From the IMG/VR virus record IMGVR_UViG_2534681773_000029: DNA of 32,438 nucleotides. One strand, given 5' to 3'. The notes under the pieces are model-generated. The model was not told where the DNA came from, searched no databases, and saw only the letters and a program-made list of their open reading frames with translations. The stretch's first letter is position 1. Every line of letters begins with the position of its first letter. A program made the translations under genes and the position numbers. Below are positions 7,399 to 29,836 of this stretch, one piece after another. The stretch is from a virus. Lineage: Duplodnaviria > Heunggongvirae > Uroviricota > Caudoviricetes.

Positions 7399-7423
7399 TT
7401 AGCCTTTAACTTTTAACCTGTTT

Positions 7424-8247: not shown

Positions 8248-9087
8248 TTAAAGCCTGCATTTGTTGTAATATGTCATCTCCATATTGATAATTGTTAATA
8301 GTGGTAAAGCCAAGTGGTTGACCATGAAACATAGCTTCATGAAAGTTTTCATTGCGGATGTTTGTAATGTTTTTTTGCCTGTAACCCATGATGGTCGTGG
8401 TATTCCATAAGTTTTGCAGATCCACTTCAAGCGCCTGGAGTGATTTAGAGTCTTTTCTGTACACTTGTTCTTTTCTGCCCATGTTAAAGCAAAGCAACTA
8501 TCCAGTGCCATATAAAGATACTGGAATTTTTCGAAGCTAAGGTATTGTGGGTTTTGGGATAAAAATAGTGCATGCACTATTGCTGCTATATTTATTGGTG
8601 CGTGTTTGGTTTTTGTCTCGCTAGACATGTATTTGAGTGCTAATTCTATAACCTCTTTTTCAGAGCACTTGACCAGAATAAAGTCAGTTAATTTGCTGGG
8701 TTTTATTGGGGTTGCGTCTAAAAAACCGGCATCAGTAGTTGTTAATCTTATCCCTTTGAAAAAAGACAGACACCACACAGCAAAATTGAGAGTTTCTAGT
8801 GAAGATGTATTTTTTAATTTTAGTGAGTGTGTTTTGGGTAAGCCAAATACTCGTTGGCTAAAAGGCATTGTGGATATGCCTCCATTGAGGTTATATACTT
8901 CTTGGTTTCCTGGGTATATCCAACCGTTAATAACATTTCTGTGATTGTTTATAAGATTTGTTTTTTCCGCTAGACCGGGTAAAGTAAGTAAAGAAAAATC
9001 ATCAGTTTCAACGTTAACTTCTACTGGATAGTATCCAAACTCAGCTTCAATATCATTGGATTGCTGTTCGTCAACTTTACCTTGCAT
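8248..9087 (-). CDS. Hypothetical protein of unknown family in cargo island; possibly frameshifted (see overlapping ORF 8147..8497)
   Basis: 279-aa minus-strand ORF; a second open frame continues to 8147. One extra A in the A7 run (plus-strand T7 at 8370-8376) would fuse them into about 313 aa. No recognisable catalytic motif. Confidence 0.45.
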   Translation of the reverse strand: MQGKVDEQQSNDIEAEFGYYPVEVNVETDDFSLLTLPGLAEKTNLINNHRNVINGWIYPGNQEVYNLNGGISTMPFSQRVFGLPKTHSLKLKNTSSLETLNFAVWCLSFFKGIRLTTTDAGFLDATPIKPSKLTDFILVKCSEKEVIELALKYMSSETKTKHAPINIAAIVHALFLSQNPQYLSFEKFQYLYMALDSCFALTWAEKNKCTEKTLNHSRRLKWICKTYGIPRPSWVTGKKTLQTSAMKTFMKLCFMVNHLALPLLTIINMEMTYYNKCRL

Positions 9088-9324
9088 ACATTGCTCCGGT
9101 CAAAAATAGGCTCGATAATTCTCGTAAGCCTATCATGTTCGCAAAGTATCCATACCTGTGGATTTTGTAAATTTAAGTTGATTTGTCATTAAATAAGCCG
9201 TTGCATGCAACAAGTGAATGTTTTTGCATGCGTCGGGGATGTCCGTTCAGGCTGCGTGCGGTCAGGACTGGTGCGGATCCATAGTATCTATGCAACTGCA
9301 TTAAAACCGCCCCATGAAGCGGGC

Positions 9325-9343
9325 GGGCGAGGCGGGGAAAGCA
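9325..9343. other. cos: cos site (19-nt cohesive-end sequence GGCGAGGCGGGGAAAGCAC)
   Basis: Exact match to the P2/P4 cohesive-end sequence as I recall it; lies in the expected place upstream of Q. Confidence 0.7.
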
Positions 9344-9486
9344 CTGCGCGCTGGCGGTGGTGCTGATTTTATTTTTTCAGCGTCTGAGCGCGTCGTGATG
9401 GCGTTTAGATTGTTCGCCGGGGCGTTGGTGTGTCTGCGGGCTGTTTTGTGCGGTGGTGAGCGTGTGAGGGCGTGATGGCGGGTTGT

Positions 9487-9508
9487 AAAAAAGCCGCCCG
9501 CAGGCGGC
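9487..9508 (-). terminator. Intrinsic terminator after Q (minus strand)
   Basis: GCCGCC-CGCA-GGCGGC hairpin with T6 on the minus strand, 6 nt past the Q stop. Confidence 0.5.
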
Positions 9509-9513
9509 GATGT

Positions 9514-10503
9514 TCAGCCGTTGTCAGTGTCCAGTGAGTAGTTTTTAAAGCGGATGACCTCCTGACCGAGCCAGCCGTTTATTTCCCGAATCCTGTCCTG
9601 TAACGGGATTAGCTCATTGCGGACAAAGACCTTTGCCACTTTCTCAATATCGCCCAGTGACCCGACGTTCTCCGGCTTGCCACCCATCAACTGAAAGGGG
9701 ATGCGGTGTGCGTCCAGCAGGTCAGCGGCGCTGGCTTTTTTGATATTAAAAAAATCGTCCTTCGTCGCCACTTCACTGAGCGGGATAATTTTAATGCCGT
9801 CGGCTTTCCCCTGCGGGGCATAGAGAAACAGGTTTTTAAAGTTGTTGCGGCCTTTCGACTTCACCATGTTTTCGCGAAGCATTTCGATATCGTTGCGATC
9901 CTGCACGGCATCGGTAACGTACATGATGTATCCGGCATGTGCGCCGTTTTCGTAATACTTGCGGCGGAACAGCGTGGCCGACTCATTCAGCCAGGCAGAG
10001 TTAAGGGCGCTGAGATATTCCGGCAGGCCATACAGCTCCTGATTAATATCCGGCTCCAGCAGGTGAAACACGGAGCCGGGCGTGAAAGGTGTCGGCTCGT
10101 TGAAGGACGGCACCCACCAGTAAACATCCTCCTCCACGCCACGACGGGTATATTTGGCCGGTGAGGTTTCCAGTCTGATGACCTTACCGGTGGTGCTGTA
10201 ACGCTTTTCCAGAAACGCATTACCGAACACCAGAAAATCCAGCACAAAGCGGCTGAAATCCTGCTGGGAAAGCCACGGGTGCGGGATAAACGTTGAGGCC
10301 AGAATATTACGTTTGACGTAAATCGGTGAGCTGTGATGCACGGCAGCACGCAGGCTTTTTGCCAGACCGGTAAAGCTGACCGGTGGCTCATACCATCTGC
10401 CGTTACTGATGCATTCGACGTAATCCAGAATGTCACGGCGGTCGAGTACCGGCACCGGCTCGCCAAAGGTGAATGCCTCCATTTTCGGGGCGCTGGCGGT
10501 CAT
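9514..10503 (-). CDS. Q: Portal protein gpQ
   Basis: 329-aa ORF matching P2 Q. A 15-codon ORF (10500..10547) starts at an ATG overlapping the P stop and would join in frame with one extra homopolymer base, giving 344 aa. Confidence 0.85.
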   Translation of the reverse strand: MTASAPKMEAFTFGEPVPVLDRRDILDYVECISNGRWYEPPVSFTGLAKSLRAAVHHSSPIYVKRNILASTFIPHPWLSQQDFSRFVLDFLVFGNAFLEKRYSTTGKVIRLETSPAKYTRRGVEEDVYWWVPSFNEPTPFTPGSVFHLLEPDINQELYGLPEYLSALNSAWLNESATLFRRKYYENGAHAGYIMYVTDAVQDRNDIEMLRENMVKSKGRNNFKNLFLYAPQGKADGIKIIPLSEVATKDDFFNIKKASAADLLDAHRIPFQLMGGKPENVGSLGDIEKVAKVFVRNELIPLQDRIREINGWLGQEVIRFKNYSLDTDNG

Positions 10504-10546
10504 TGTTTTTGCCGCTGGTCGCGGTGTTTTCCCTTTTTCTTGCTCA

Positions 10547-12319
10547 TCAGTAAAACTCCAGAATGGTGGATGTCAGCGGGGTGCTGATACCCGCGGTGAG
10601 TGGCTCATTTAACAGGGCATGCATGGTCGCCCAGGCGAGGTCGGCGTGGCTGGCTTCCTCGCTGCGGCTGGCCTCATAGGTGGCGCTGCGTCCGCTGCTG
10701 GTCATGGTCTTGCGGATAGCCATAAACGAGCTGGTGATGTCGGTGGCGCTGACGTCATATTCCAGACAGCCACGGCGAATAACGTCTTTTGCCTTGAGCA
10801 CCATTGCGGTTTTCATTTCCGGCGTGTAGCGGATATCGCGCGCGGCGGGATAGAACGAGCGCACGAGCTGGAACACGCCGACACCGAGGCCGGTGGCATC
10901 AATTCCGATGTATTCGACGTTGTATTTTTCGGTGAGTTTGCGGATGGATTCAGCCTGAGTGGCAAAGTCCATGCCTTTCCACTGGTGACGCTCAAGTATT
11001 CTGAATTTGCCACCGGCCACCACCGGCGGTGCCAGCACCACGCATCCGGCACTGTCGCCACGGTGTGACGGGTCGTAACCAATCCATACCGGGCGGGAGC
11101 CGAACGGATTCGCGGCAAACGGCGCATAGTCTTCCCATTCTTCCAGCGTGTCGACCATGCAGCGTTGCAGCTCCTCGAACGGGAACACCGACGCCTTGTC
11201 GTCAACAAATTCACACATGAACAGGTTTTTAAAATCGTCGGCGCTGTTTTCACGTTTGAGCTGCTCAATGTCGAACAGCGTGCAGCCGCCTTTCAGCGCG
11301 TCCTCAATGGTGACAATCTGCCGCCACTGGCCGTCCGCACAGAGAAGACCTCCGGCAAGGGCGTTATGACTGACGTCGATTTCCACGCGTTCGGCGGCGC
11401 TGGCGCGACCCCGGTTGAACAGTTCACCCGACCAGAACGGGTAGGCGTCGTGCGCCAGCGTGGACGGGGTGGAGAAATAGGTCGAGCGCAGGTGACTCTG
11501 TGAGGCCATACCTGATGCCACCTTACGCAGTACCTGAAAATTCGGGATCCAGAAAATCTCATCGACGTACAGGTCGCCGTTATGGCTCTGCGCGGTGTTG
11601 GAGTTGGTGCCGAGAAAAATCAGTTTTGCGCCGTTATTGCCCAGGACAATCGGGTCACCGGTCAGGTCAACGTCAACCAGCCGGGCAAAGGCGATGATGT
11701 ATTCGCGGAACACATACGCCTGCGTTTTACTGGCCGACAGAAAAATCTGGTTATGACCGGTTTTCAGGGCGCGCAGCAGCGCCTCGCGGGAAAAATAAAA
11801 CGTCGCGCCAATCTGGCGGGATTTCAGGATATCGCGGATGCGGTGCTCAAGCCCGGCGCGATACCAGTGCAACTGATATTCGAAAGACTGCTCAAAGAAA
11901 ATCTGCTCCAGCTTTTCGATGGCCTCGTCACTGAAAAAATTCTTTTTCGGTTTGCGACGCCCGCCCTTGTTGCGGTTAGCGACGTTCGGATTAAGGTCTG
12001 CCTCGTTGCCGGTCTGACTGTAACGGTTGACCCGTGCCAGTCGTTCAATCTGGCGTCCGAGCAGGTCAATTTCCTTGAAGTCACCGCCGGTTTTCTGCGG
12101 TTTGATGATGAGCTGGGTCAGCCTCGCTTCCAGACTCATTTCGACACGGCTGATGGGGGCAACGCTGTCCCAGCCGTCGCGCTGTTTCCAGCTCTGCACC
12201 GTCGGGCGTTTCATCTGCAACATGGCGGCAATCTGCGGCACGGAAAACCCCTGCCAGTACAGCAGCGCCGCCTGACGACGCGGATCGTGTAAAAGAGTGG
12301 TGTCTGTGGTGATGGTCAT
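10547..12319 (-). CDS. P: Terminase large subunit (ATPase) gpP
   Basis: ORF 10547..12349; ATG at 12319 (MTITTDTTLLHD) with GAGG SD gives 590 aa, the P2 P length. Confidence 0.9.
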   Translation of the reverse strand: MTITTDTTLLHDPRRQAALLYWQGFSVPQIAAMLQMKRPTVQSWKQRDGWDSVAPISRVEMSLEARLTQLIIKPQKTGGDFKEIDLLGRQIERLARVNRYSQTGNEADLNPNVANRNKGGRRKPKKNFFSDEAIEKLEQIFFEQSFEYQLHWYRAGLEHRIRDILKSRQIGATFYFSREALLRALKTGHNQIFLSASKTQAYVFREYIIAFARLVDVDLTGDPIVLGNNGAKLIFLGTNSNTAQSHNGDLYVDEIFWIPNFQVLRKVASGMASQSHLRSTYFSTPSTLAHDAYPFWSGELFNRGRASAAERVEIDVSHNALAGGLLCADGQWRQIVTIEDALKGGCTLFDIEQLKRENSADDFKNLFMCEFVDDKASVFPFEELQRCMVDTLEEWEDYAPFAANPFGSRPVWIGYDPSHRGDSAGCVVLAPPVVAGGKFRILERHQWKGMDFATQAESIRKLTEKYNVEYIGIDATGLGVGVFQLVRSFYPAARDIRYTPEMKTAMVLKAKDVIRRGCLEYDVSATDITSSFMAIRKTMTSSGRSATYEASRSEEASHADLAWATMHALLNEPLTAGISTPLTSTILEFY

Positions 12320-12492
12320 GAATACCTCGCCGTGATGAATACACGGCAAGGCTACTGAGTCGCGCCCCGCGATTCGCTAAGGTGCTGTTGTGTCAGTGAT
12401 AAGCCATCCGGGACTGATGGCGGAGGATGCGCATCGTCGGGAAACTGATGCCGACATGTGACTCCTCTAATCACTATTCAGGACTCCTGACA

Positions 12493-13347
12493 ATGGCAAA
12501 AAAAGCATCAAAATTCTTTCGTATCGGCGTTGAGGGTGACACCTGTGACGGGCGTGTCATCAGTGCGCAGGATATTCAGGAAATGGCCGAAACCTTTGAC
12601 CCGCGAGTCTATGGTTGCCGCATTAACCTGGAACATCTGCGCGGCATCCTGCCTGACGGCATTTTTAAACGTTATGGCGATGTGGTCGAACTGAAGGCCG
12701 AAAAGATTGATGACGATTCGGCGCTGAAAGGCAAATGGGCGCTGTTTGCGAAAATCACCCCGACCGATGACCTTATCGCGATGAACAAGGCCGCGCAGAA
12801 GGTCTACACCTCAATGGAAATTCAGCCGAACTTTGCCAATACCGGCAAATGTTATCTGGTGGGACTGGCCGTCACCGATGACCCGGCAAGCCTCGGTACG
12901 GAATACCTGGAATTCTGCCGCACGGCAAAACACAACCCCCTGAACCGCTTCAAATTAAGCCCTGAAAACCTGATTTCAGTGGCAACGCCTGTTGAGCTGG
13001 AATTTGAAGACCTGCCTGAAACCGTGTTCACCGCCCTGACCGAAAAGGTGAAATCCATTTTTGGCCGCAAACAGGCCAGCGATGACGCCCGTCTGAATGA
13101 CGTGCATGAAGCGGTGACCGCTGTCGCTGAGCATGTGCAGGAAAAACTGAGCGCCACTGAGCAGCGCCTTGCTGAGATGGAAACCGCCTTTTCCGCACTT
13201 AAGCAGGATGTGACTGACAGGGCGGATGAAACCAGTCAGGCATTCACCCGCCTGAAAAACAGTCTCGACCACACCGAAAGTCTGACCCAGCAGCGCCGCA
13301 GTAAAGCCACCGGCGGTGGCGGTGACGCCCTGATGACGAACTGCTGA
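12493..13347 (+). CDS. O: Capsid scaffolding protein gpO
   Basis: ORF 12427..13347; ATG at 12493 (MAKKASKFFRIGVEGDTCDG) gives 284 aa, matching P2 O. Confidence 0.9.
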   Translation: MAKKASKFFRIGVEGDTCDGRVISAQDIQEMAETFDPRVYGCRINLEHLRGILPDGIFKRYGDVVELKAEKIDDDSALKGKWALFAKITPTDDLIAMNKAAQKVYTSMEIQPNFANTGKCYLVGLAVTDDPASLGTEYLEFCRTAKHNPLNRFKLSPENLISVATPVELEFEDLPETVFTALTEKVKSIFGRKQASDDARLNDVHEAVTAVAEHVQEKLSATEQRLAEMETAFSALKQDVTDRADETSQAFTRLKNSLDHTESLTQQRRSKATGGGGDALMTNC

Positions 13348-13405
13348 CCGGTGTCAGTCAGTCCGGGAAAACCTTCACGATTAACCCTTAATTTCAGGAA
13401 AAACT

Positions 13406-14479
13406 ATGCGCCAGGAAACCCGCTTTAAATTTAATGCCTACCTGTCCCGTGTTGCCGAACTGAACGGCATCGACGCCGGTGATGTGTCGAAAAAATTCAC
13501 CGTTGAACCGTCGGTCACCCAGACCCTGATGAACACCATGCAGGAGTCCTCTGATTTTCTGACCCGCATCAACATTGTGCCGGTCAGCGAAATGAAAGGG
13601 GAAAAAATTGGTATTGGTGTCACCGGCTCCATCGCCAGCACCACCGACACCGCCGGTGGCACCGAGCGTCAGCCGAAGGACTTCTCGAAGCTGGCGTCCA
13701 GTAAGTACGAATGCGACCAGATTAACTTCGATTTTTATATCCGCTACAAAACGCTGGACCTGTGGGCGCGTTATCAGGATTTCCAGCTCCGTGTCCGTAA
13801 CGCCATTATCAAACGTCAGTCCCTTGATTTAATCATGGCCGGTTTTAACGGCGTGAAGCGTGCCGAAACCTCTGACCGCAGCAGCAATCCGATGCTGCAG
13901 GATGTGGCGGTCGGCTGGCTGCAGAAATACCGCAATGAAGCCCCGGCGCGCGTGATGAGCAAGGTTACTGACGAGGAAGGTCACACCACCTCTGAGGTCA
14001 TCCGCGTGGGTAAGGGCGGTGATTATGCCAGCCTCGATGCACTGGTGATGGATGCGACCAACAACCTGATTGAGCCGTGGTATCAGGAAGACCCTGACCT
14101 TGTGGTGATTGTGGGGCGTCAGTTACTGGCGGACAAGTATTTCCCCATCGTTAACAAGGAGCAGGACAACAGCGAAATGCTGGCCGCTGACGTCATCATC
14201 AGCCAGAAACGCATCGGTAACCTACCAGCGGTACGCGTCCCGTACTTCCCGGCGGATGCGATGCTCATCACGAAGCTGGAAAACCTGTCCATCTACTACA
14301 TGGATGACAGCCATCGCCGCGTGATTGAGGAAAACCCGAAACTCGACCGCGTGGAGAACTACGAGTCAATGAACATTGATTACGTGGTGGAAGACTACGC
14401 CGCCGGTTGTCTGGTGGAAAAAATTAAGGTCGGTGATTTCTCCACACTGGCTAAAGCGACCGCAGAGCCGGGAGCGTAA
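13406..14479 (+). CDS. N: Major capsid protein gpN
   Basis: 357-aa ORF, matches P2 N in length and sequence recollection. Confidence 0.9.
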   Translation: MRQETRFKFNAYLSRVAELNGIDAGDVSKKFTVEPSVTQTLMNTMQESSDFLTRINIVPVSEMKGEKIGIGVTGSIASTTDTAGGTERQPKDFSKLASSKYECDQINFDFYIRYKTLDLWARYQDFQLRVRNAIIKRQSLDLIMAGFNGVKRAETSDRSSNPMLQDVAVGWLQKYRNEAPARVMSKVTDEEGHTTSEVIRVGKGGDYASLDALVMDATNNLIEPWYQEDPDLVVIVGRQLLADKYFPIVNKEQDNSEMLAADVIISQKRIGNLPAVRVPYFPADAMLITKLENLSIYYMDDSHRRVIEENPKLDRVENYESMNIDYVVEDYAAGCLVEKIKVGDFSTLAKATAEPGA

Positions 14480-14482
14480 CCG

Positions 14483-15226
14483 ATGACGAGTCCCGCACAG
14501 CGCCACATGATGCGGGTCTCGGCAGCGATGACCGCGCAGCGGGAAGCCGCCCCGCTGCGACATGCAACTGTCTATGAGCAGATGCTGGTCAAGCTGGCCG
14601 CAGACCAGCGCACACTGAAAGCGATTTATTCAAAAGAGCTGAAGGCCGCGAAAAAACGCGAACTGCTGCCGTTCTGGTTGCCGTGGGTGAACGGCGTGCT
14701 GGAGCAGGGCAAAGGTGCACAGGATGACATTCTGATGACGGTCATGCTGTGGCGTCTGGATACCGGCGATATTGCCGGTGCGCTGGAGATTGCCCGTTAT
14801 GCCCTGAAGTACGGTCTGACCATGCCGGGGAAACACCGCCGCACCCCGCCGTACATGTTCACCGAGGAGGTGGCGCTTGCGGCCATGCGTGCTCACGCTG
14901 CCGGTGAGTCTGTGGATACCCGCCTGCTGACGGAGACCCTTGAACTGACCGCCACGGCTGACATGCCTGATGAAGTGCGCGCAAAGCTGCACAAAATCAT
15001 CGGTCTGTTTCTGCGTGACGGTGGTGATGCCGCCGGTGCGCTGGCTCACCTGCAACGTGCGACACAGCTCGACTGTCAGGCAGGCGTCAAAAAAGAGATT
15101 GAACGACTGGAGCGGGAGCTGAAACCGAAGCCGGAGCCGCAGCCCAAAGCGGCCACCCGTACCCTGCGTAAGACCCGGAGCGTGACACCGGCAAAACGTG
15201 GACGCCCGAAAAAGAAAGCCAGTTAA
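14483..15226 (+). CDS. M: Terminase small/endonuclease subunit gpM
   Basis: 247-aa ORF following N; basic C-terminal tail; matches P2 M. Confidence 0.85.
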   Translation: MTSPAQRHMMRVSAAMTAQREAAPLRHATVYEQMLVKLAADQRTLKAIYSKELKAAKKRELLPFWLPWVNGVLEQGKGAQDDILMTVMLWRLDTGDIAGALEIARYALKYGLTMPGKHRRTPPYMFTEEVALAAMRAHAAGESVDTRLLTETLELTATADMPDEVRAKLHKIIGLFLRDGGDAAGALAHLQRATQLDCQAGVKKEIERLERELKPKPEPQPKAATRTLRKTRSVTPAKRGRPKKKAS

Positions 15227-15325
15227 CAACCGAATGCGCCCCGCGCCAGGGCGGCACGCCGGTCAGTGAGGGTGAATCACCTGACACTGCACCGGCGTCC
15301 ACCGCCCGACTTTTCAGAGGTAGTC

Positions 15326-15835
15326 ATGATGACGCTGATTATTCCGCGAAAGGAGGCTCCCGTGTCCGGTGAGGGTACGGTGGTCATCCCGCAACCGGCA
15401 GGCGACGAGCCGGTGATTAAAAACACGTTCTTTTTTCCCGATATCGACCCGAAGCGCGTCCGGGAACGTATGCGCCTTGAGCAGACTGTCGCCCCCGCCC
15501 GTCTGCGTGAGGCCATCAAGTCAGGCATGGCGGAGACGAATGCGGAGCTGTACGAGTACCGCGAACAGAAAATTGCTGCCGGTTTTTCGCGTCTGGCTGA
15601 CGTCCCGGCGGACGACATCGACGGTGAAAGCATCAAAGTTTTTTACTACGAGCGCGCCGTGTGTGCGATGGCGACCGCGTCGCTTTATGAGCGTTATCGC
15701 GGCGTGGATGCCAGTGCGAAAGGCGACAAGAAGGCCGACAGCATTGACAGCACCATTGATGAACTGTGGCGGGATATGCGCTGGGCAGTGGCGCGCATCC
15801 AGGACAAGCCGCGCTGCATCGTGAGTCAAATCTGA
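15326..15835 (+). CDS. L: Head completion protein gpL
   Basis: ORF 15266..15835; ATG at 15326 (MMTLIIPRKE) with GAGG SD gives 169 aa as in P2 L. Confidence 0.85.
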   Translation: MMTLIIPRKEAPVSGEGTVVIPQPAGDEPVIKNTFFFPDIDPKRVRERMRLEQTVAPARLREAIKSGMAETNAELYEYREQKIAAGFSRLADVPADDIDGESIKVFYYERAVCAMATASLYERYRGVDASAKGDKKADSIDSTIDELWRDMRWAVARIQDKPRCIVSQI

Positions 15836-16038
15836 TGAAGACCTTTGCGCTACAGGGCGACACGCTCGACGCCATTTGTGTCCGGTATTACGGGCGCACT
15901 GAGGGCGTGGTTGAGACCGTGCTCGCCGCAAATCCGGGACTGGCTGAACTGGGTGTGGTGCTGCCACACGGCACCGCCGTCGAACTGCCCGACGTTCAGA
16001 CCGCGCCCGTGGCTGAAACTGTCAATCTGTGGGAGTAA
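15835..16038 (+). CDS. X: Tail protein gpX
   Basis: ATG at 15835 overlaps the L stop (TGATG); 67 aa (MKTFALQGDTLDAICVRYYG) as in P2 X. Confidence 0.85.
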   Translation: MKTFALQGDTLDAICVRYYGRTEGVVETVLAANPGLAELGVVLPHGTAVELPDVQTAPVAETVNLWE

Positions 16039-16041
16039 CGC

Positions 16042-16323
16042 ATGACAGCAGAAGAAAAAAGCGTCCTGTCGCTTTTCATGATTGGGGTGCTGATTGTTGT
16101 CGGCAAGGTGCTTGCCGGTGGTGAACCCATCACCCCGCGTCTGTTTATCGGGCGCATGTTGCTCGGTGGTTTTGTCTCGATGGTTGCCGGTGTTGTTCTG
16201 GTGCAGTTTCCTGACCTGTCACTGCCTGCGGTGTGCGGTATCGGCTCCATGCTGGGTATCGCCGGTTATCAGGTGATTGAGATTGCCATTCAGCGCCGTT
16301 TTAAGGGCAGGGGGAAACAGTAA
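16042..16323 (+). CDS. Y: Holin gpY
   Basis: 93-aa ORF with hydrophobic segments and charged C-terminus, directly upstream of the endolysin. Confidence 0.85.
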   Translation: MTAEEKSVLSLFMIGVLIVVGKVLAGGEPITPRLFIGRMLLGGFVSMVAGVVLVQFPDLSLPAVCGIGSMLGIAGYQVIEIAIQRRFKGRGKQ

Positions 16324-16820: not shown

Positions 16821-16834
16821 ACGGAGTAAACACC

Positions 16835-17673: not shown

Positions 17674-17818
17674 CCCGGAGACGAACGGCGATTTAAGTGC
17701 CGATATCCGGCAGCTTGAGAACGCGCTGGCACGCTGTGCCAGCCAGGTAAAAATGATTAAACACTGTCAGGACGAAAACGATGCTCAAACCCGACAGCCT
17801 GCGCAGGGCGCTGACTGA
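17528..17818 (+). CDS. lysC: Spanin outer-membrane lipoprotein LysC (Rz1-like), embedded in lysB in another frame
   Basis: ATG at 17528 inside lysB; lipoprotein signal with lipobox (MKTKIFAAGTALACLMLCAGC); 96 aa; 3' end overlaps R. Confidence 0.8.
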   Translation: MKTKIFAAGTALACLMLCAGCTSARPAPTPVIVHNACPKVSLCPMPGSDPETNGDLSADIRQLENALARCASQVKMIKHCQDENDAQTRQPAQGAD

Positions 17819-18248
17819 TGCCGTCACGGTGCTGAAAACCAGTCCAGAGATGCTTCGGATATTCGTGGATAACGGGAGTATTGCCTCCACGCTGGCGACG
17901 TCGCTGTCGTTCGAAAAGCGTTACACGCTCAATGTGATTGTGACCGACTTTACCGGTGATTTTGACCTGCTCATCGTGCCGGTGTTGGCGTGGCTGCGGG
18001 AAAATCAGCCCGACATCATGACCACTGACGAAGGCCAGAAAAAGGGCTTCACGTTTTATGCAGACATCAACAATGACAGCAGCTTTGATATCAGCATCAG
18101 CCTGATGCTGACCGAGCGCACGCTGGTCAGTGAGGTGGACGGCGCACTGCATGTGAAGAACATCCCGGAACCTCCGCCGCCGGAGCCGGTCACCCGCCCG
18201 ATGGAGCTGTATATCAATGGCGAACTGGTGAGCAAGTGGGATGAATGA
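17781..18248 (+). CDS. R: Tail completion protein gpR
   Basis: 155-aa ORF, syntenic with P2 R. Confidence 0.85.
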   Translation: MLKPDSLRRALTDAVTVLKTSPEMLRIFVDNGSIASTLATSLSFEKRYTLNVIVTDFTGDFDLLIVPVLAWLRENQPDIMTTDEGQKKGFTFYADINNDSSFDISISLMLTERTLVSEVDGALHVKNIPEPPPPEPVTRPMELYINGELVSKWDE

Positions 18249-18693: not shown

Positions 18694-18759
18694 TTGTGCC
18701 ATTCCCGACACCTCATCGTCACATTGCCGCCGGTATGACCCGGCGGCATCCTTCCCGTT

Positions 18760-19739: not shown

Positions 19740-19743
19740 AACC

Positions 19744-21256: not shown

Positions 21257-22611
21257 CAGTGAAATACTACGCCATTCTGACTAATCAGGGCGCGGCACGG
21301 CTGGCTAACGCGACGATGCTCGGCAGTAAGCTGAATCTGACGCAAATGGCCGTTGGTGATGCGAATGGTGTCTTGCCGACACCAGACCCGGCACAGACAA
21401 AACTGATTAACCAGAAACGCATCGCGCCGCTGAATCTTCTGAGTGTTGACCCGAACAACCAGAGCCAGATTATTGCGGAGCAAATCATCCCTGAGAACGA
21501 GGGCGGATTCTGGATCCGTGAGATTGGGCTTTATGATGATGAAGGCGTACTCATTGCGGTGGCGAACTGCCCGGAAACGTACAAACCGCAGTTGCAGGAA
21601 GGCAGTGGTCGTACCCAGACTATCCGCATGATTCTGGTTGTCACGAATACCGAAGCTATTACGCTGAAAATCGACCCGTCGGTGGTACTGGCGACCCGTA
21701 AATACGTGGATGATGAAGTCCTGGAATTAAGGCTGTATGTGGATGACCAGATGAGAAAACACATTGCCGCACAGGACCCTCATACCCAGTATGCACAGAA
21801 ACATAATCCGACATTTACCGGAGAACCAAAAGCGCCGACGCCTGCCGCAGGAAATAACACCACGCGGATTGCGACCACTGAGTTTGTTCAGGCCGCTATT
21901 ACCGCTCTGATTAACGGCGCGCCAGCCACGCTGGACACACTGAAAGAAATTGCCGCAGCCATTAACAATGACCCGAAATTCAGCGCCACCATTAACAATG
22001 CGCTGTCAGGTAAGCAGCCACTGGATGAGACGCTAACTCATTTGAGTGGGAAGGATGTTGCCGGTCTTCTCGCATACCTTGGTTTGGGAGAAGGTGCTCC
22101 AGCTATTGGCGTTCCGTTCTTCTGGCCGTCCGCAGCAATGCCAGATACCGTAATCGATAGCTGGTCCAGCATGGTGTTTTTGAAGTTCAACGGCGCGAAA
22201 TTCTCTGCCACTGATTACCCTGTGCTGGCGAAAGTGTTTCCGGCGCTGGCATTACCTGACGCACGCGGTGATTTCATTCGTATCTGGGATGACGGGCGCG
22301 GGATTGATGTCGGACGTACCCTACTTTCAGGGCAATCACACACAATTATGGATCATGCACACAATATGGAATTGTGGACGGGGGACGGGCTTGCCGCAGG
22401 AAGTGCACGGGAAGGAGTAAACCCAGGAATACTGGCTACATATGGTGACGGGGGAATAGTTAAAACGGACGAACCCGGTCTTAGGGTGCCTTCCTCACTA
22501 CGAGCTCTTAGCTCGCGTAGTGTTAAACGTTATGGTGAAATTAGTGGAAATGTAGGTACAGAAACCCGTCCACGAAATATTGCATTTAACTTTCTGGTGA
22601 GGGCTAAATAA
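21253..22611 (+). CDS. H: Tail fibre protein gpH (constant N-terminal part plus the variable C-terminal cassette in its current orientation)
   Basis: 452-aa ORF; the crossover site at 22067-22092 lies in frame within it, separating constant and invertible parts. Confidence 0.85.
   Translation: MTVKYYAILTNQGAARLANATMLGSKLNLTQMAVGDANGVLPTPDPAQTKLINQKRIAPLNLLSVDPNNQSQIIAEQIIPENEGGFWIREIGLYDDEGVLIAVANCPETYKPQLQEGSGRTQTIRMILVVTNTEAITLKIDPSVVLATRKYVDDEVLELRLYVDDQMRKHIAAQDPHTQYAQKHNPTFTGEPKAPTPAAGNNTTRIATTEFVQAAITALINGAPATLDTLKEIAAAINNDPKFSATINNALSGKQPLDETLTHLSGKDVAGLLAYLGLGEGAPAIGVPFFWPSAAMPDTVIDSWSSMVFLKFNGAKFSATDYPVLAKVFPALALPDARGDFIRIWDDGRGIDVGRTLLSGQSHTIMDHAHNMELWTGDGLAAGSAREGVNPGILATYGDGGIVKTDEPGLRVPSSLRALSSRSVKRYGEISGNVGTETRPRNIAFNFLVRAK
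22067..22092. repeat. 26-bp invertase crossover site, left (TTCTCGCATACCTTGGTTTGGGAGAA), inside H
   Basis: Imperfect dyad; its right half is the reverse complement of the left half of the site at 23964-23989 (15-bp exact inverted repeat TTGGTTTGGGAGAAG). Confidence 0.75.
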
Positions 22612-23204
22612 TGAAACCTGTTTTTGATGAAAATGGGCTGGCTACAGTACCGGGTAATATGCGTTGTTTTTATTATGAGGCAGTTACGTATGAATATACT
22701 GGCTGGTCTGATGAATATATTAATACTGGCGTAAGTATGCCCGCCTGTTCCACTGGTATTGACCCGGGCGAATACATTCCGGGGAAAGTGGCAGTATTTA
22801 CGGGTAAGGGATGGAGCCATGAAGAAGACCACCGCAATGAGACTGTTTACTCAATCGAAAATGGCGCAGCTGTTACAGTGGATTATATCGGTGCCATCAA
22901 AGACGGTTATGTCACGCTTTCACCGTTAACGCCATACGATAAATGGGATGGTGAGAAATGGGTGACAGATACTGAGGCACAGCATAGTGCCGCAGTAGAC
23001 GCAGCAGAAGCACAGCGCCAGTCGCTGATTGATGCTGCAATGGCTTCCATCAGTCTGATTCAACTGAAATTACAGGCCGGACGGAAGCTGACGCAGGCAG
23101 AAACAACCCGACTTAACGCCGTGCTGGATTACATTGACGCGGTGACGGTAACAGATACCAGCACCGCGCCGGATGTCATCTGGCCTGAACTGCCGGAGGC
23201 GTAG
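22611..23204 (+). CDS. G: Tail fibre assembly protein gpG (cassette in expressed orientation)
   Basis: 197-aa ORF after H; C-terminal motif (DYIDAVTVTDTSTAPDVIWPELP) also present in the minus-strand G' copy. Confidence 0.8.
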   Translation: MKPVFDENGLATVPGNMRCFYYEAVTYEYTGWSDEYINTGVSMPACSTGIDPGEYIPGKVAVFTGKGWSHEEDHRNETVYSIENGAAVTVDYIGAIKDGYVTLSPLTPYDKWDGEKWVTDTEAQHSAAVDAAEAQRQSLIDAAMASISLIQLKLQAGRKLTQAETTRLNAVLDYIDAVTVTDTSTAPDVIWPELPEA

Positions 23205-23616
23205 GCCATTCAATATCTGGCGCACCGGAAGTATCGACCAGTTCCAGTGCGTCCAGATAATCCAGCCACAAATTATATTGCGCCAGTTCCTCACCTTTCA
23301 GGCGACCAATCGCCGCTTTACCAGGCCATTGCTTACTGTTTATGTATTCGTTGACCTGATTAATCAATTGCTGCTTTTCCAGTTCGGCTGCGGCAATTTG
23401 TTCCTCATGAGTTGGCGGTGGAATATCAATCCATGCAGGCATTCCGTCGATGACACCTCTGTATTTTCCTTCTGGTGCTTCCTTCATAAATTCGGCGGCA
23501 ACAGTGTCGTCAATTTCGATTCCATCATCGGGCCATTCGCCGGATTCCTGATAAGCGATTTTAAGCTCCACAGGGAAAAACGCATTTTTATCGGCGCTGA
23601 AAATATATTTCTGCAT
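23176..23616 (-). CDS. Alternative tail fibre assembly protein (G'), silent orientation
   Basis: 146-aa minus-strand ORF convergent with G, 3' ends overlapping; tail-fibre-chaperone-like C-terminus (DYLDALELVDTSGAPDIEWPTPP). Confidence 0.75.
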   Translation of the reverse strand: MQKYIFSADKNAFFPVELKIAYQESGEWPDDGIEIDDTVAAEFMKEAPEGKYRGVIDGMPAWIDIPPPTHEEQIAAAELEKQQLINQVNEYINSKQWPGKAAIGRLKGEELAQYNLWLDYLDALELVDTSGAPDIEWPTPPAVQAR

Positions 23617-23618
23617 TT

Positions 23619-23977
23619 CTACCGTCCTATCGAAATATAACTGAATCTGTATTGCTGTGAGATATCACTGGTTGCCACACGCCACGCTGAATTACTGATA
23701 TGTTCAAAATTTACAGACAAAACCTGCGGGGCAGGATTCGACGGGTCTGACTGAACGGCATCAGACATAACACTGACTGAAACCATCGGCTGATTAGGGA
23801 ATGGTATAGGGAAGTGTCCACTGATAAAGCGGGTCGAGTTTCCTGCAAAAGTGCCAAACTGAACAATATATCCACCTGGTAGCCTGAACCATCCCGAACC
23901 AGAAGCGAATGCTCCCATATCCGGTATCTGATTATCTCCTGTGCCCACATTCCGTTTTGCCGCTTCTCCCAAACCAA
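23619..23977 (-). CDS. Alternative tail fibre C-terminal cassette (Hc'), promoterless until inversion
   Basis: Minus-strand frame 23619..24017 shares the in-frame junction GLGE with H at the crossover site; would fuse to the constant H N-terminus after inversion. Confidence 0.7.
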
Positions 23978-23989
23978 CGTTTATGAAAA
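23964..23989. repeat. 26-bp invertase crossover site, right (TTCTCCCAAACCAACGTTTATGAAAA)
   Basis: Inverted relative to the 22067-22092 site; sits about 55 bp upstream of the invertase gene; hix/gix/cix-like dyad with central AA. Confidence 0.75.
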
Positions 23990-24044
23990 TGCAGAGATAA
24001 CGGGCAACTGGCATCATCTCCGGTTTTTATTCAGGGGGATGCTC

Positions 24045-24638
24045 ATGCTTATTGGCTATGTACGCGTGTCAACAAATGACCAGAACACGGAATTGCAGCG
24101 TAACGCGCTGGAGTGTGCAGGATGTGAGCTGATTTTTGAGGATAAAATCAGCGGCACGAAGTCCGACCGACCGGGACTGAAAAAACTGCTCAGAACATTA
24201 TCAGCAGGTGACACTCTGGTGGTCTGGAAGCTGGACAGGCTGGGGCGTAGTATGCGGCATCTGGTCATTCTGGTTGAGGAACTGCGCGAACGCGGCGTTA
24301 ATTTTCGCAGCCTGACGGATGCCATTGATACCAGCACGCCGATGGGACGTTTTTTCTTTCATGTGATGGGTGCCCTGGCTGAAATGGAACGAGAACTCAT
24401 TGTCGAGCGGACTCGCGCCGGACTGGAAGCGGCCAGAGCCAAAGGTCGTATTGGTGGCAGACGTCCGAAACTCACCGCGAGTGAGTGGGAGCAGGTCGGA
24501 CGGTTGCTGGCTCCGGGGGAATCTCGTCAACGCGTGGCACTGATTTTTGATATTGGCCTGTCCACGCTCTATAAAAAATTTCCCTCATCAGCGACAAAGA
24601 ATAAATTGTGTCATCCCTTAGCCAACCGGGACAAATAG
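24045..24638 (+). CDS. Serine DNA invertase, Gin/Hin/Cin/Pin family
   Basis: N-terminus MLIGYVRVSTNDQNTELQRNAL with catalytic serine context and C-terminal HTH region; start at 24045 preferred (GGGGG SD) over 24039. Confidence 0.9.
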   Translation: MLIGYVRVSTNDQNTELQRNALECAGCELIFEDKISGTKSDRPGLKKLLRTLSAGDTLVVWKLDRLGRSMRHLVILVEELRERGVNFRSLTDAIDTSTPMGRFFFHVMGALAEMERELIVERTRAGLEAARAKGRIGGRRPKLTASEWEQVGRLLAPGESRQRVALIFDIGLSTLYKKFPSSATKNKLCHPLANRDK

Positions 24639-24697
24639 CCTGACATCTCCGGCACAACTGAAAATATCACTCACCCATTAACCACGGAGTTAAACGG

Positions 24698-25888
24698 ATG
24701 AGTGACTATCATCACGGCGTGCAGGTGCTGGAGATTAACGACGGCACCCGCGTCATTTCCACCGTATCCACTGCCATTGTTGGCATGGTCTGCACGGCCA
24801 GCGATGCGGATGCGGAAACCTTCCCCCTCAATAAACCGGTGCTGATTACCAATGTGCAGAGCGCAATTGCAAAGGCCGGTAAAAAAGGCACGCTGGCGGC
24901 ATCGTTGCAGGCCATCGCCGACCAGTCAAAACCGGTCACCGTTGTCGTGCGTGTGGAAGATGGCACCGGTGACGACGAGGAAACGAAACTCGCGCAGACC
25001 GTTTCCAATATCATCGGCACCACCGACGAAAACGGTCAGTACACCGGACTGAAAGCCCTGCTGGCGGCGGAGTCGGTAACCGGTGTTAAACCGCGCATTC
25101 TCGGTGTGCCGGGACTGGACACCAAAGAGGTGGCTGTTGCACTGGCATCAGTCTGTCAGAAGCTGCGCGCTTTCGGGTATATCAGCGCATGGGGCTGTAA
25201 AACCATTTCCGAGGTGAAAGCCTACCGCCAGAATTTCAGCCAGCGTGAGCTGATGGTCATCTGGCCGGATTTCCTCGCATGGGATACGGTCACCAGTACC
25301 ACCGCCACCGCGTATGCCACCGCCCGTGCGCTGGGTCTGCGCGCTAAAATCGACCAGGAGCAGGGCTGGCATAAAACGCTGTCCAACGTTGGGGTGAACG
25401 GTGTTACCGGCATCAGCGCCTCTGTATTCTGGGATTTGCAGGAGTCCGGCACCGATGCTGACCTGCTTAACGAGTCAGGCGTCACAACGCTGATTCGCCG
25501 TGACGGTTTCCGCTTCTGGGGTAACCGTACCTGCTCTGATGACCCGCTGTTCCTCTTTGAAAACTACACCCGCACCGCGCAGGTGCTGGCCGATACGATG
25601 GCTGAGGCGCACATGTGGGCGGTGGACAAGCCCATCACCGCAACGCTGATTCGCGACATCGTTGACGGCATCAATGCCAAATTCCGTGAGCTGAAAACAA
25701 ACGGCTATATCGTGGATGCGACCTGCTGGTTCAGCGAAGAATCCAACGATGCGGAAACCCTTAAGGCCGGAAAACTGTATATCGACTACGACTATACCCC
25801 GGTGCCTCCTCTTGAAAACCTGACCCTGCGCCAGCGTATTACCGATAAATATCTGGCAAATCTGGTCACCTCGGTTAACAGCAATTAA
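24698..25888 (+). CDS. FI: Tail sheath protein gpFI
   Basis: 396-aa ORF, matches P2 FI length and position. Confidence 0.9.
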   Translation: MSDYHHGVQVLEINDGTRVISTVSTAIVGMVCTASDADAETFPLNKPVLITNVQSAIAKAGKKGTLAASLQAIADQSKPVTVVVRVEDGTGDDEETKLAQTVSNIIGTTDENGQYTGLKALLAAESVTGVKPRILGVPGLDTKEVAVALASVCQKLRAFGYISAWGCKTISEVKAYRQNFSQRELMVIWPDFLAWDTVTSTTATAYATARALGLRAKIDQEQGWHKTLSNVGVNGVTGISASVFWDLQESGTDADLLNESGVTTLIRRDGFRFWGNRTCSDDPLFLFENYTRTAQVLADTMAEAHMWAVDKPITATLIRDIVDGINAKFRELKTNGYIVDATCWFSEESNDAETLKAGKLYIDYDYTPVPPLENLTLRQRITDKYLANLVTSVNSN

Positions 25889-25900
25889 GGAGCCTGACCG

Positions 25901-26419
25901 ATGGCAATGCCGCGCAAACTCAAGTTAATGAACGTCTTTCTGAACGGCTACAGCTATCAGGGCGTTGCAAAGTCCGTCACGCTGCCAAAACTGACCCGTA
26001 AGCTCGAAAACTATCGCGGTGCGGGGATGAACGGCAGCGCACCGGTAGACCTCGGTCTTGATGACGATGCGCTGTCAATGGAGTGGTCGCTCGGTGGCTT
26101 CCCGGATTCGGTTATCTGGGAGCTTTACGCCGCAACCGGTGTGGATGCTGTGCCGATTCGTTTTGCAGGCTCTTACCAGCGTGACGATACCGGCGAAACG
26201 GTGGCCGTCGAAGTGGTCATGCGTGGACGTCAGAAAGAAATCGACACCGGCGAGGGTAAACAGGGAGAAGACACTGAGTCGAAAATCTCCGTGGTCTGCA
26301 CCTATTTCCGGCTGACGATGGACGGTAAGGAGCTGGTCGAAATCGACACCATCAACATGATTGAGAAGGTGAACAGCGTCGACCGGCTGGAGCAACACCG
26401 CCGCAATATCGGCCTGTGA
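25901..26419 (+). CDS. FII: Tail tube protein gpFII
   Basis: 172-aa ORF after the sheath gene. Confidence 0.9.
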   Translation: MAMPRKLKLMNVFLNGYSYQGVAKSVTLPKLTRKLENYRGAGMNGSAPVDLGLDDDALSMEWSLGGFPDSVIWELYAATGVDAVPIRFAGSYQRDDTGETVAVEVVMRGRQKEIDTGEGKQGEDTESKISVVCTYFRLTMDGKELVEIDTINMIEKVNSVDRLEQHRRNIGL

Positions 26420-26475
26420 TTTTCATCCGGTCAGCCAGGCTGACCGGTTAACCCTGATTCAGAAGTGAGAAAACC

Positions 26476-26751
26476 ATGAACAAAGAAAATGTGATTACCC
26501 TGGACAATCCGGTCAAGCGTGGTGAGCAGGTCATCGAACAGGTCACGCTGATGAAACCCAATGCCGGGACGCTGCGCGGTGTCAGTCTGGCAGCGGTCGC
26601 GAACTCCGAAGTCGATGCACTGATTAAGGTGCTGCCGCGCATGACGGCACCGATGCTGACCGAGCAGGAAGTCGCCGCGCTGGAACTGCCTGACCTTGTG
26701 GCGCTGGCCGGTAAGGTGGTCGGTTTTTTGTCGCCGAACTCGGTTCAGTGA
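26476..26751 (+). CDS. E: Tail assembly chaperone gpE
   Basis: 91-aa ORF ending just after a TTTTTTG slippery heptamer. Confidence 0.85.
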   Translation: MNKENVITLDNPVKRGEQVIEQVTLMKPNAGTLRGVSLAAVANSEVDALIKVLPRMTAPMLTEQEVAALELPDLVALAGKVVGFLSPNSVQ

Positions 26752-26903
26752 CGTTTCCGAAAAATCTGTCGGTCGATGACCTGATGGCGGATGTGGCAGT
26801 GATATTTCACTGGCCGCCATCAGAACTGTATCCCATGAGCCTGACCGAACTCATCACATGGCGCGAAAAGGCGCTCCGGCGAAGCGGAAACACGAATGAG
26901 TGA
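26476..26903 (+). CDS. gpE+E' fusion made by programmed -1 ribosomal frameshift at slippery site 26724-26730
   Basis: The -1 frame is open from the slip site to TGA at 26901-26903, overlapping the T start; hand-translated extension VAELGSVTFPKNL...WREKALRRSGNTNE. Confidence 0.75.
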
Positions 26904-29343
26904 CAATGTAAAATTACAGGTATTGCTCAGGGCTGTTGACCAGGCATCCCGCCCGTTTAAATCCATCCGCACAGCGAGCAAATCGCTGTCGGGGGATATC
27001 CGGGAAACACAAAAATCACTGCGCGAGCTGAACGGTCAGGCATCCCGTATTGAGGGATTCCGCAAGACCAGTGCACAGCTCGCCGTGACTGGTCATGCAC
27101 TTGAAAAGGCTCGGCAGGAGGCCGAAGCCCTTGCCACACAGTTTAAAAATACCGAACGTCCGACACGTGCTCAGGCGAAAGTGCTGGAATCCGCAAAGCG
27201 TGCGGCGGAGGACTTACAGGCGAAATATAACCGCCTGACGGATTCCGTTAAACGCCAGCAGCGGGAACTGGCCGCTGTGGGAATTAATACCCGCAATCTT
27301 GCACATGATGAGCAGGGACTGAAAAACCGTATCAGTGAAACCACCGCACAGCTTAACCGTCAGCGTGACGCACTAGCGCGTGTCAGTGCACAACAGGCAA
27401 AACTTAACGCAGTAAAACAGCGTTATCAGGCCGGAAAGGAGCTGGCCGGAAATATGGCCTCAGTGGGCGCTGCCGGTGTGGGGATTGCGGCGGCGGGAAC
27501 GATGGCCGGTGTTAAGCTGCTGATGCCCGGTTATGAGTTTGCGCAGAAAAACTCAGAATTGCAGGCCGTGCTAGGTGTGGCAAAAGACTCCGCCGAAATG
27601 GCCGCGCTCCGCAAACAGGCGCGTCAGCTTGGCGACAATACCGCCGCCTCGGCAGATGATGCAGCCGGTGCGCAGATTATTATTGCGAAAGCCGGTGGGG
27701 ATGTTGATGCCATTCAGGCGGCAACGCCGGTCACGCTGAATATGGCGCTGGCGAACCGTCGCACGATGGAAGAAAACGCCGCCCTGCTGATGGGGATGAA
27801 ATCCGCCTTTCAGCTTTCAAACGATAAGGTCGCTCATATCGGGGATGTTCTCTCCATGACGATGAACAAAACCGCCGCCGATTTTGACGGTATGAGCGAT
27901 GCGCTGACCTATGCCGCACCTGTGGCAAAAAATGCCGGTGTCAGCATTGAAGAAACCGCCGCAATGGTCGGGGCGCTGCATGATGCAAAAATCACAGGCT
28001 CAATGGCGGGGACGGGAAGCCGTGCCGTGTTAAGTCGCCTGCAGGCACCAACGGGAAAAGCATGGGATGCACTCAAAGAGCTTGGCGTGAAAACCTCAGA
28101 CAGTAAGGGGAATACCCGACCAATATTTACCATTCTGAAAGAAATGCAGGCCAGTTTTGAGAAAAACCGGCTCGGTACTGCCCAGCAGGCTGAATACATG
28201 AAAACTATTTTCGGGGAGGAGGCCAGCTCAGCCGCCGCCGTGCTGATGACTGCCGCCTCAACCGGAAAGCTGGACAAACTGACCGCTGCGTTTAAAGCCT
28301 CAGACGGGAAGACCGCCGAGCTGGTAAATATCATGCAGGACAACCTAGGCGGTGACTTTAAAGAGTTTCAGTCCGCTTATGAGGCGGTGGGGACTGACCT
28401 GTTTGACCAGCAGGAAGGCGCACTGCGTAAGCTCACGCAGACGGCCACAAAGTATGTGTTAAAACTCGACGGCTGGATCCAGAAAAACAAATCACTGGCG
28501 TCAACCATCGGCCTTATTGTCGGTGGTGCACTGGCACTGACTGGTGTCATCGGTGCCATTGGCCTCGTAGCCTGGCCGGTTATCACCGGCATCAATGCCA
28601 TCATCGCGGCAGCAGGCGCAATGGGGGCAATCTTCACGACGGTTGGCAGTGCTGTTATGACGGCCATCGGGGCGATTAGCTGGCCGGTTGTGGCCGTGGT
28701 GGCTGCAATTGTCGCCGGGGCGTTGCTTATCCGTAAATACTGGGAGCCTGTCAGCGCATTCTTTGGCGGTGTGGTTGAAGGGCTGAAGGCAGCATTTGCG
28801 CCAGTGGGGGAACTGTTCACGCCACTTAAGCCGGTGTTTGACTGGCTGGGTGAAAAGTTACAGGCCGCGTGGCAGTGGTTTAAAAACCTGATTGCCCCGG
28901 TCAAAGCTACCCAGGACACCCTGAACCGTTGCCGTGACACGGGCGTCATGTTCGGGCAGGCACTGGCTGACGCGCTGATGCTGCCGCTTAATGCGTTCAA
29001 CAAACTGCGCAGTGGTATTGACTGGGTACTGGAAAAACTCGGTGTTATCAACAAAGAGTCTGACGCACTTGACCAGACTGCCGCCAGAACTCATGCCGCC
29101 ACGTATGGCACCGGTGGGTATATTCCGGCGACCAGTTCTTATGCAGGCTATCAGGCTTATCAGCCGGTCACGGCACCGGCTGGCCGCTCTTATGTGGACC
29201 AGAGTAAAAACGAATATCACATAAGCCTGACGGGGGGGACTGCGCCGGGGACACAGCTTGACCGCCAGTTACAGGATGCGCTCGAAAAATACGAGCGGGA
29301 TAAACGTGCGCGCGCCCGTGCCAGCATGATGCATGACGGTTAA
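26896..29343 (+). CDS. T: Tail tape measure protein gpT
   Basis: 815-aa ORF, coiled-coil N-terminus and Gly/Ala-rich hydrophobic middle, matches P2 T length. Confidence 0.9.
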   Translation: MSDNVKLQVLLRAVDQASRPFKSIRTASKSLSGDIRETQKSLRELNGQASRIEGFRKTSAQLAVTGHALEKARQEAEALATQFKNTERPTRAQAKVLESAKRAAEDLQAKYNRLTDSVKRQQRELAAVGINTRNLAHDEQGLKNRISETTAQLNRQRDALARVSAQQAKLNAVKQRYQAGKELAGNMASVGAAGVGIAAAGTMAGVKLLMPGYEFAQKNSELQAVLGVAKDSAEMAALRKQARQLGDNTAASADDAAGAQIIIAKAGGDVDAIQAATPVTLNMALANRRTMEENAALLMGMKSAFQLSNDKVAHIGDVLSMTMNKTAADFDGMSDALTYAAPVAKNAGVSIEETAAMVGALHDAKITGSMAGTGSRAVLSRLQAPTGKAWDALKELGVKTSDSKGNTRPIFTILKEMQASFEKNRLGTAQQAEYMKTIFGEEASSAAAVLMTAASTGKLDKLTAAFKASDGKTAELVNIMQDNLGGDFKEFQSAYEAVGTDLFDQQEGALRKLTQTATKYVLKLDGWIQKNKSLASTIGLIVGGALALTGVIGAIGLVAWPVITGINAIIAAAGAMGAIFTTVGSAVMTAIGAISWPVVAVVAAIVAGALLIRKYWEPVSAFFGGVVEGLKAAFAPVGELFTPLKPVFDWLGEKLQAAWQWFKNLIAPVKATQDTLNRCRDTGVMFGQALADALMLPLNAFNKLRSGIDWVLEKLGVINKESDALDQTAARTHAATYGTGGYIPATSSYAGYQAYQPVTAPAGRSYVDQSKNEYHISLTGGTAPGTQLDRQLQDALEKYERDKRARARASMMHDG

Positions 29344-29357
29344 GGAGGTGACGAAAA

Positions 29358-29836
29358 ATGATGCTCGCGTTAGGTATGTTTGTTTTTATGCGCCAGACGC
29401 TGCCACACCAGACCATGCAGCGTGAATCAGATTATCGCTGGCCGTCAAATTCCCGTATCGGCAAACGGGATGCCTTTCAGTTTCTCGGTGTTGGCGAGGA
29501 AAATATCACGCTTGCCGGTGTGCTTTATCCAGAGCTGACCGGCGGCAAGCTGACGATGACCACGCTCAGGCTGATGGCTGAGGAAGGCCGGGCGTGGCCG
29601 TTGCTGGATGGCACCGGCATGATTTACGGCATGTATGTCATCAGCAGGGTGAGTGAAACAGGGAGTATTTTTTTGCAGACGGCACACCCCGGAAAATTGA
29701 TTTTACGCTGTCGCTCACCCGCGTTGATGAATCACTGGCCGCGCTTTATGGCGATATCGGTAAACAGGCGGAATCGCTCATCGGTAAGGCTGGCAGTATG
29801 GCGACTAAATTCACGGATATGACGGGGGCGGGATAA
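29358..29836 (+). pseudogene. U: Tail protein gpU, disrupted by a frameshift in a T7 homopolymer (29668-29674)
   Basis: Frame from 29358 runs into Arg/Ser-rich sequence and stops at 29822; an adjacent frame (29657..29836) encodes protein-like FADGTPRKIDFTLSLTRVDESL... and ends TAATG overlapping D. One extra T restores 159 aa. Confidence 0.6.

Follow-up and report, generated by a model that had tools for sequence, protein, structure and literature searches.

Phage P2 provides the background to the locus described here. The P2 E/E' shift, by which the tail gene products E and E+E' arise, uses the heptamer TTTTTTG without any known downstream structure (PMC3091744), and compensatory frameshifting at run indels is likewise a known phenomenon (PMC5009743). 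In the P2 virion structure, gpU is the tube initiator and occupies the baseplate hub in six copies, its C-terminal helix touches the wedge, and the mature portal protein, Q*, is modelled from residue 27 (bioRxiv 10.64898/2026.09.14.750843). The subject of this work is a stretch of viral DNA of 32,438 nucleotides (IMG/VR record IMGVR_UViG_2534681773_000029), hereafter the window, by which the whole stretch is meant. In the window, the tail gene U, the portal gene Q and a gene of a cargo island each appear to be interrupted by the loss of a single base from a run of T. The alleles found in related prophages suggest that these three losses likely have two causes: the change in U is a real, inherited mutation, and the other two are probably sequencing miscalls.

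Three one-base losses and the tail gene U

The window is a complete P2-like (Peduovirus) prophage, as established by its map of open reading frames (ORFs), Pfam and BLAST matches, with both the P2 gene order and chromosomal integration present. Its insertion site lies between cpxP and fieF. Over 19,087 bases it is 100% identical to AIGZ01000027.1, a contig of E. coli DEC11D (GCA_000250195.2), and the frameshifted U product is named at NCBI under the same strain.

A preliminary description of the window had pointed to frame disruptions at T7 (8370-8376), T4/C3/T5 (10527-10538) and T7 (29668-29674). The runs stand at these positions, one added T repairs each frame, and base-level alignment places the missing base there. 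In BLAST comparisons, the window was one base shorter than every relative (601 versus 602, 501 versus 502 and 3701 versus 3702). Relative to the closest relatives, the losses correspond to T8 to T7 at 8370-8376, T6 to T5 at 10534-10538 and T8 to T7 at 29668-29674; all three indels sit in mononucleotide runs and alter run length alone. Runs of at least 5 bases make up about 2.8% of the bases of the window (118, 41, 11 and 1 runs of 5, 6, 7 and 8, respectively), and the probability that three single-base deletions placed at random would each hit such a run is about 2e-5.

There is no further frame-breaking indel in the 32 kb. Between positions 1 and 10973, comparison with four intact close relatives revealed no indels besides those at 8370 and 10534. 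Comparison with E. coli EC1 over 6439-32438 returned the three focal sites and an intergenic T6/T5 polymorphism at 8079, along with alignment-edge noise in the variable tail-fibre region. At all three sites, the exact 81-mer of the window is absent from every complete RefSeq E. coli genome with the region concerned (1,415 genomes in the case of U, 1,544 for Q, 47 for the island).

The distribution of alleles at the U site argues firmly that its T7 run is a real, inherited mutation and not an artefact. The exact product of the contracted gene, 154 amino acids (aa) long, was found on 11 contigs. The T7 allele was read directly in the NCBI contigs DAJXQS010000024.1, JAXUFZ010000023.1 and ACAROW010000049.1, in the Logan assemblies ERR162636, ERR180841 and SRR096435, and in the ENA metagenome contig ERZ27254721. 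It is thus reproduced by no fewer than three other NCBI assemblies, a further three read sets and one metagenome contig, which is not the behaviour of an artefact. The metagenome contig equals the window for its first 1,069 nucleotides, U included, and then shows 26 substitutions within D; it therefore derives from a different mosaic phage. T7 occurs in 0 of the 1,415 RefSeq genomes with the region.

Using the tape-measure protein T as a lineage marker (exact copy on 14 contigs), sisters with an intact 159-aa U were recognized in ABSTDG010000012.1 and SRR29259184. Both carry T8 (ATT TTT TTT GCA), and their tape-measure protein is as in the window, with one single-nucleotide polymorphism (SNP) over about 8 kb. 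T8 is otherwise rare, being present in one of the 1,415 RefSeq genomes (GN04592, a different mosaic in which U is annotated as intact). Neither T7 nor T8 was found at this site in a scan of IMG/VR contigs, and T4-C-T3 was the sequence in P2, in every one of the 120 IMG/VR loci that were read and in the single RefSeq genome examined at base level.

Because the closest intact sisters carry T8, the history of the site can be read as a passage from T4-C-T3 to T8 and then to T7. T4-C-T3 became T8 inside U through a synonymous TTC to TTT change, replication slippage reduced T8 to T7, and the lesion has been inherited within a bacterial clone ever since. Such a history provides a neat, unsurprising example of how a silent change can build a fragile site. 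The direct loss of the C from T4-C-T3 was considered as another origin of the lesion and was rejected on account of the T8 run of the closest sisters.

Codons 1-105 of the 159 codons of U are normal, after which the shifted frame continues as far as a TGA at 29820-29822, yielding the 154-aa product; the wild-type frame would stop at the TAA at 29834-29836, which overlaps the start of D. The match to Phage_P2_GpU ends at residue 112. This heritable lesion, a frameshift at codon 105 of 159, is shared within a clade. Since residues 106-159 are replaced, tail assembly is very probably blocked. U is regarded as essential, in line with the literature on gpU. With the C-terminal third of gpU replaced, the prophage probably does not produce infectious particles, and its induction would probably yield no infectious phage.

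The portal gene Q and the cargo gene

The small terminase M, present as an exact copy on 9 contigs, served as a lineage-specific marker and retrieved the sister prophages; the terminase P and replication A proteins were useless for this purpose, having exact copies in 26,576 and 604 blocks, respectively. The comparison was made among the matches listed, and ten further similar places exist beyond those. The contig DAJXQS010000024.1, which also carries the U-T7 allele, is separated from the window by 2 substitutions in 20.7 kb; its cargo run is T8 and its Q run T6, giving genes of 313 aa and 344 aa, respectively. In ACAROW010000035.1, 1 substitution from the window, the cargo and Q runs are both full length. 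SRR29259184, at 3 substitutions, shows T6 for Q on a contig that ends before the island. The Q and cargo contractions are thus unreproduced in sisters 1-3 SNPs away. Cargo T7 and Q T5 occur together only in AIGY, AIGZ, SRR096435 and SRR096436, that is, in the 2011 data for DEC11C and DEC11D.

The run lengths in these data are themselves inconsistent. The GenBank assembly of DEC11C (AIGY) reads T6 at 6059-65 against T7 in the window. The Logan assembly of SRR096436, which corresponds to the haplotype of DEC11C, shows T5 at 6482-87 together with A6 at 9748-54, and this A6 splits Q a second time. AIGY and Logan SRR096436 disagree at all three of these places, and every disagreement is a contraction. 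SRR446843, a different haplotype that lies 2 SNPs from an intact relative, repeats the cargo T7 and the contraction at 6482-87. Every run discrepancy in the DEC11 material is a contraction of an A/T run. Among members of the U-T7 clade, assemblies made later contain about 4 SNPs and no indels, and those of DEC11 contain 1 SNP and 3-4 contractions. In 2012, the centre that sequenced the DEC11 strains produced other E. coli genomes with 454 Titanium sequencing and Celera assembly (PMC3491183).

Judging from this distribution of alleles, the Q and cargo contractions are likely homopolymer under-calls. Under this explanation, the Q change from T6 to T5 and the cargo change from T8 to T7 would both be under-calls in the 2011 sequence data for DEC11C and DEC11D, and Q and the cargo gene would probably be intact in the strain itself.

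In the cargo gene, the coding tract was A8 only in the IMG/VR scan (8 contigs), and A8 is also found in CP148883 and CP148785. A7 is found in ABWTHT010000014.1 and five similar places. The A8 and A7 of these records belong to one prophage type (a Salmonella-type prophage), the sequencing platforms being unverified.

In Q, the first ATG, at 10547, opens a 15-codon ORF, and an in-frame ATG at 10503, corresponding to Met16, starts a 329-aa ORF. If the change in Q were real, it might matter little, as Q* is modelled from residue 27 and the ATGA overlap between the two ORFs favours re-initiation at Met16. Q opens with 15 codons of A-rich, low-complexity sequence (AAGAAAAAAGGGAAAACACC...GGCAAAAACAATG), and varied one-base run changes occur there in many public assemblies; the 329-aa form of Q is present in 57 blocks of the sequence collection. 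A scan of IMG/VR identified A5 in Q in four contigs. Errors, mutations or both concentrate in the Q leader.

In the Salmonella-type prophage, Q has T5 (in one case C2T6) in the complete genomes CP121419-27 and T6 in the sister draft ABWTHT010000014.1. The CP121419-CP121427 series comprises four complete genomes with a 98.3%-identical prophage, in which N, O, P, A, L and S are split. The split genes vary by assembly, and the underlying indels are all run contractions. This series is a clear example of assembly-level homopolymer error.

Outside the prophage, 127 nucleotides to the left of the first base of the window, DEC11C and DEC11D have a run of A7 and four other genomes one of A8. The run is followed by a G+C-rich hairpin, between the end of the prophage and cpxP. 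Of 530 RefSeq records covering the site, 2 share the A7. The contraction in the host flank adds to those of the DEC11 data, yet leaves the matter unsettled on account of these two records.

Several observations weigh against the preferred explanation for Q and the cargo gene. Both contractions are common to DEC11C and DEC11D, which random errors would rarely produce, and therefore either a systematic error or common descent is needed. The sister assemblies come from other isolates and not from re-sequenced DEC11D. The T8 at 31447-31454 on the plus strand is full length and identical in the sister DAJXQS010000024.1, and all other runs of seven were called correctly. With U broken, further slippage mutations in the prophage are expected to be neutral. 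Furthermore, cargo A7 in ABWTHT010000014.1 and its five similar places is accompanied by an intact Q; the cargo run therefore mutates in nature. The alternative is a progressive decay in which all three contractions are real, with that in U arising first and those in Q and the cargo gene following by slippage in an ancestor of DEC11C and DEC11D. Such a history is unlikely, while still deserving a substantial share of the remaining probability. It draws on the presence of both alleles in two strains that were sequenced separately, on a Logan reassembly of SRR096435 that matches the window exactly, on ten other runs of seven and another T8 that are correct in the assembly, on the slippage that demonstrably happened in the lineage at U, and on the A7 of other assemblies of the Salmonella-type prophage. 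Nevertheless, a DEC11C and DEC11D clade has no SNP support: its branch would consist of 2-3 indels and 0 substitutions, while the other branches carry substitutions only. Run contractions also conflict between assemblies of the same reads, two of them recur in the unrelated haplotype SRR446843, and the Salmonella-type Q-T5 appears in the error-rich CP121419-27 and not in the sister draft ABWTHT01. At the other extreme, all three losses could be artefacts in a fully intact prophage, as would suit the fact that every site lies in a T run and is repaired by one added T. This is scarcely credible, given that U-T7 turns up in numerous assemblies and read sets of independent origin and in a metagenome contig, and that the two carriers in which the island and Q could be compared, DAJXQS010000024.1 and GCA_052646055.1, show the full-length cargo T8 and Q T6. 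The preliminary description had proposed, for all sites jointly, either a sequencing artefact or a decaying prophage, and that choice has to be divided by site. Artefact is favoured for Q and the cargo gene and is refuted for U, where T7 recurs in independently obtained assemblies and read sets with the other runs at full length and where a T8 ancestor was found. Slippage mutation is supported for U, and decay, represented by this real lesion, is limited, every other phage gene being intact.

The lesions could also be real and leaky, with a -1 slip at the U heptamer restoring gpU and re-initiation of Q at ATGA bypassing the shift. The T7 allele of U, ATT TTT TTG, contains T_TTT_TTG, the E/E' heptamer in the same codon register, and, as noted above, the E/E' shift operates without known downstream structure (PMC3091744). 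A simulated -1 slip at this run gave a gpU with the exact wild-type local sequence, 159 aa long and identical to that of P2 bar one polymorphic residue. A re-initiated Q would lose residues 1-15 only, which lie within the 26 absent from the mature portal, and compensatory frameshifting has a precedent (PMC5009743). Against this stands the distribution of the U shift site, which is derived in one clade and not conserved (T7 or T8 in 0 of 120 IMG/VR loci); in addition, its carriers are 0-1 SNP apart and lie between cpxP and fieF wherever the flank was seen, which fits the vertical inheritance of a dead prophage. Unstimulated slippage usually amounts to a few percent, which also counts against leakiness. 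An AGGGAG motif lies 3 nucleotides upstream of the U heptamer; from what is known of dnaX and prfB, a 3-nucleotide spacing would not favour -1 shifting and so would speak against it as well. Taken together, leaky lesions are very unlikely, and, on these sequence comparisons, it would be marginally more improbable still that the U frameshift is only partly disabling and leaves the prophage attenuated rather than dead. If true, a silent TTC to TTT change and a run contraction would have made an essential tail gene dependent on compensatory frameshifting, with six gpU copies per tail sufficing.

Gene order and neighbouring features

The gene order of the prophage is int ... A, cargo, Q, P, O-N-M-L ... 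FI-FII-E-T-U-D-ogr, and its features are listed in Table 1. The cargo island (5800-9500) lies between replication gene A and cos/Q. Its 313-aa and 199-aa proteins had no match in Pfam, PADLOC or NCBIfam. In other P2-like prophages, the same slot holds retron Ec48, GmrSD with HEPN, AAA_15/21 ATPases, or a Fic or CDT toxin. Considering its position and its CapP-like gene, the island may be an uncharacterised defence cassette.

Table 1. Features of the window, with positions counted from its first base.
Feature	Position	Strand	Remarks
Integrase	1-1011	minus	First in order, followed by immunity/early genes and replication gene A
Cargo island			3.7 kb, after replication gene A and before Q
CapP-like ImmA/IrrE metallopeptidase	6913-7398		PADLOC capP, 1e-30
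199-aa cargo protein	7465-8064
Cargo-island gene, 313 aa when intact (WP_001161722.1)	8147..9087	-	Shift at codon 238; 279-aa product ending at 8248
T7 run (A7 on coding strand) in cargo gene	8370..8376	+	T8 in relatives and sister assemblies; probably an under-call
Portal gene Q, terminase P		minus	After cargo island
Portal gene Q, 344 aa when intact	9514..10547	-	Here a 15-codon leader ORF and a 329-aa ORF
15-codon leader ORF from Q shift, MSKKKGKHRDQRQKQ and stop	10500..10547	-	TGA overlaps ATG of 329-aa ORF (ATGA)
T5 run (A5 on coding strand, codons 4-5 of Q)	10534..10538	+	T6 in relatives and sister assemblies; probably an under-call
Late operons O-N-M-L-X-Y-K-lysABC-R-S-V-W-J-I-H-G			After Q/P
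FI-FII-E/E'-T-U-D and ogr			After invertible tail-fibre segment
TTTTTTG slippery site, programmed -1 frameshift E/E+E' (GGT TTT TTG, 26722-26730)	26724..26730	+	PMC3091744
Tail gene U (tube-initiator gpU), frameshifted	29358..29836	+	Pfam Phage_P2_GpU, 1e-35; comparison with P2 U
T7 run in U, genuine T8 to T7 contraction	29668..29674	+	T8 in sisters; T4-C-T3 in most P2-like phages

The E/E+E' site of the window is a genuine change of frame in a T run and not a lesion. Elsewhere, a serine invertase at 24039-24638 (Resolvase/HTH_7) adjoins inverted tail-fibre cassettes, the invertible segment spanning 23176-24638; the cassettes at 23176-23616 and 23619-24017, on the minus strand, encode a tail-fibre C-terminus and chaperone in inverted orientation. 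The arrangement is reminiscent of the host-range switches Gin, Cin and Min. A substitution at 17985 is private to DEC11D, which has T where every sister, DEC11C included, has C; it is the sole SNP between the window and several sister prophages over about 20 kb.

Comparison with known systems

For annotation, these results mean that Q and the 313-aa cargo gene are probably not pseudogenes and that U is a genuine pseudogene. The status of the cargo gene matters because it occupies a slot that holds anti-phage defence genes in related prophages. More generally, T-run frameshifts that look identical within one window can differ in cause, and sister assemblies can separate them without recourse to reads. 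Nothing here goes beyond known phenomena, namely homopolymer miscalls and the slippage pseudogenisation of a prophage gene.

Homopolymer under-calls, as known from 454, Ion Torrent and Oxford Nanopore (ONT) sequencing, resemble the single-base contractions of the window in A/T runs of 6-8. The changes in Q and the cargo gene share further traits with them, being confined to certain data sets, absent from sisters and found beside other inconsistent run lengths, and the CP121419-27 genomes show such contractions at many runs. They differ from typical under-calls in that two separately sequenced DEC11 strains agree, the read platform of the DEC11 data being unverified. The U site has a similar appearance, yet is no artefact.

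Defective (cryptic) P2-like prophages offer a second comparison, as the window is integrated, retains the complete P2 order and has an inherited tail-gene frameshift in related isolates. In contrast to these, it has hardly decayed, with a single certain lesion and no deletions, IS elements or stop codons, and all other genes are full length. With its coding A8 tract, for which both A8 and A7 exist among close prophages, the cargo gene resembles the contingency genes that switch through homopolymeric tracts; it differs from them in that some of its A7 calls are probably errors and its alleles are known here from assemblies. Finally, the programmed -1 shift between E and E+E' of P2 has a counterpart in the T7 run of U, where the identical heptamer recurs in the same register 2.9 kb downstream in the same operon. 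Unlike the P2 site, the one in U is derived by mutation in a single clade, is not conserved and is expected to yield no second functional product.

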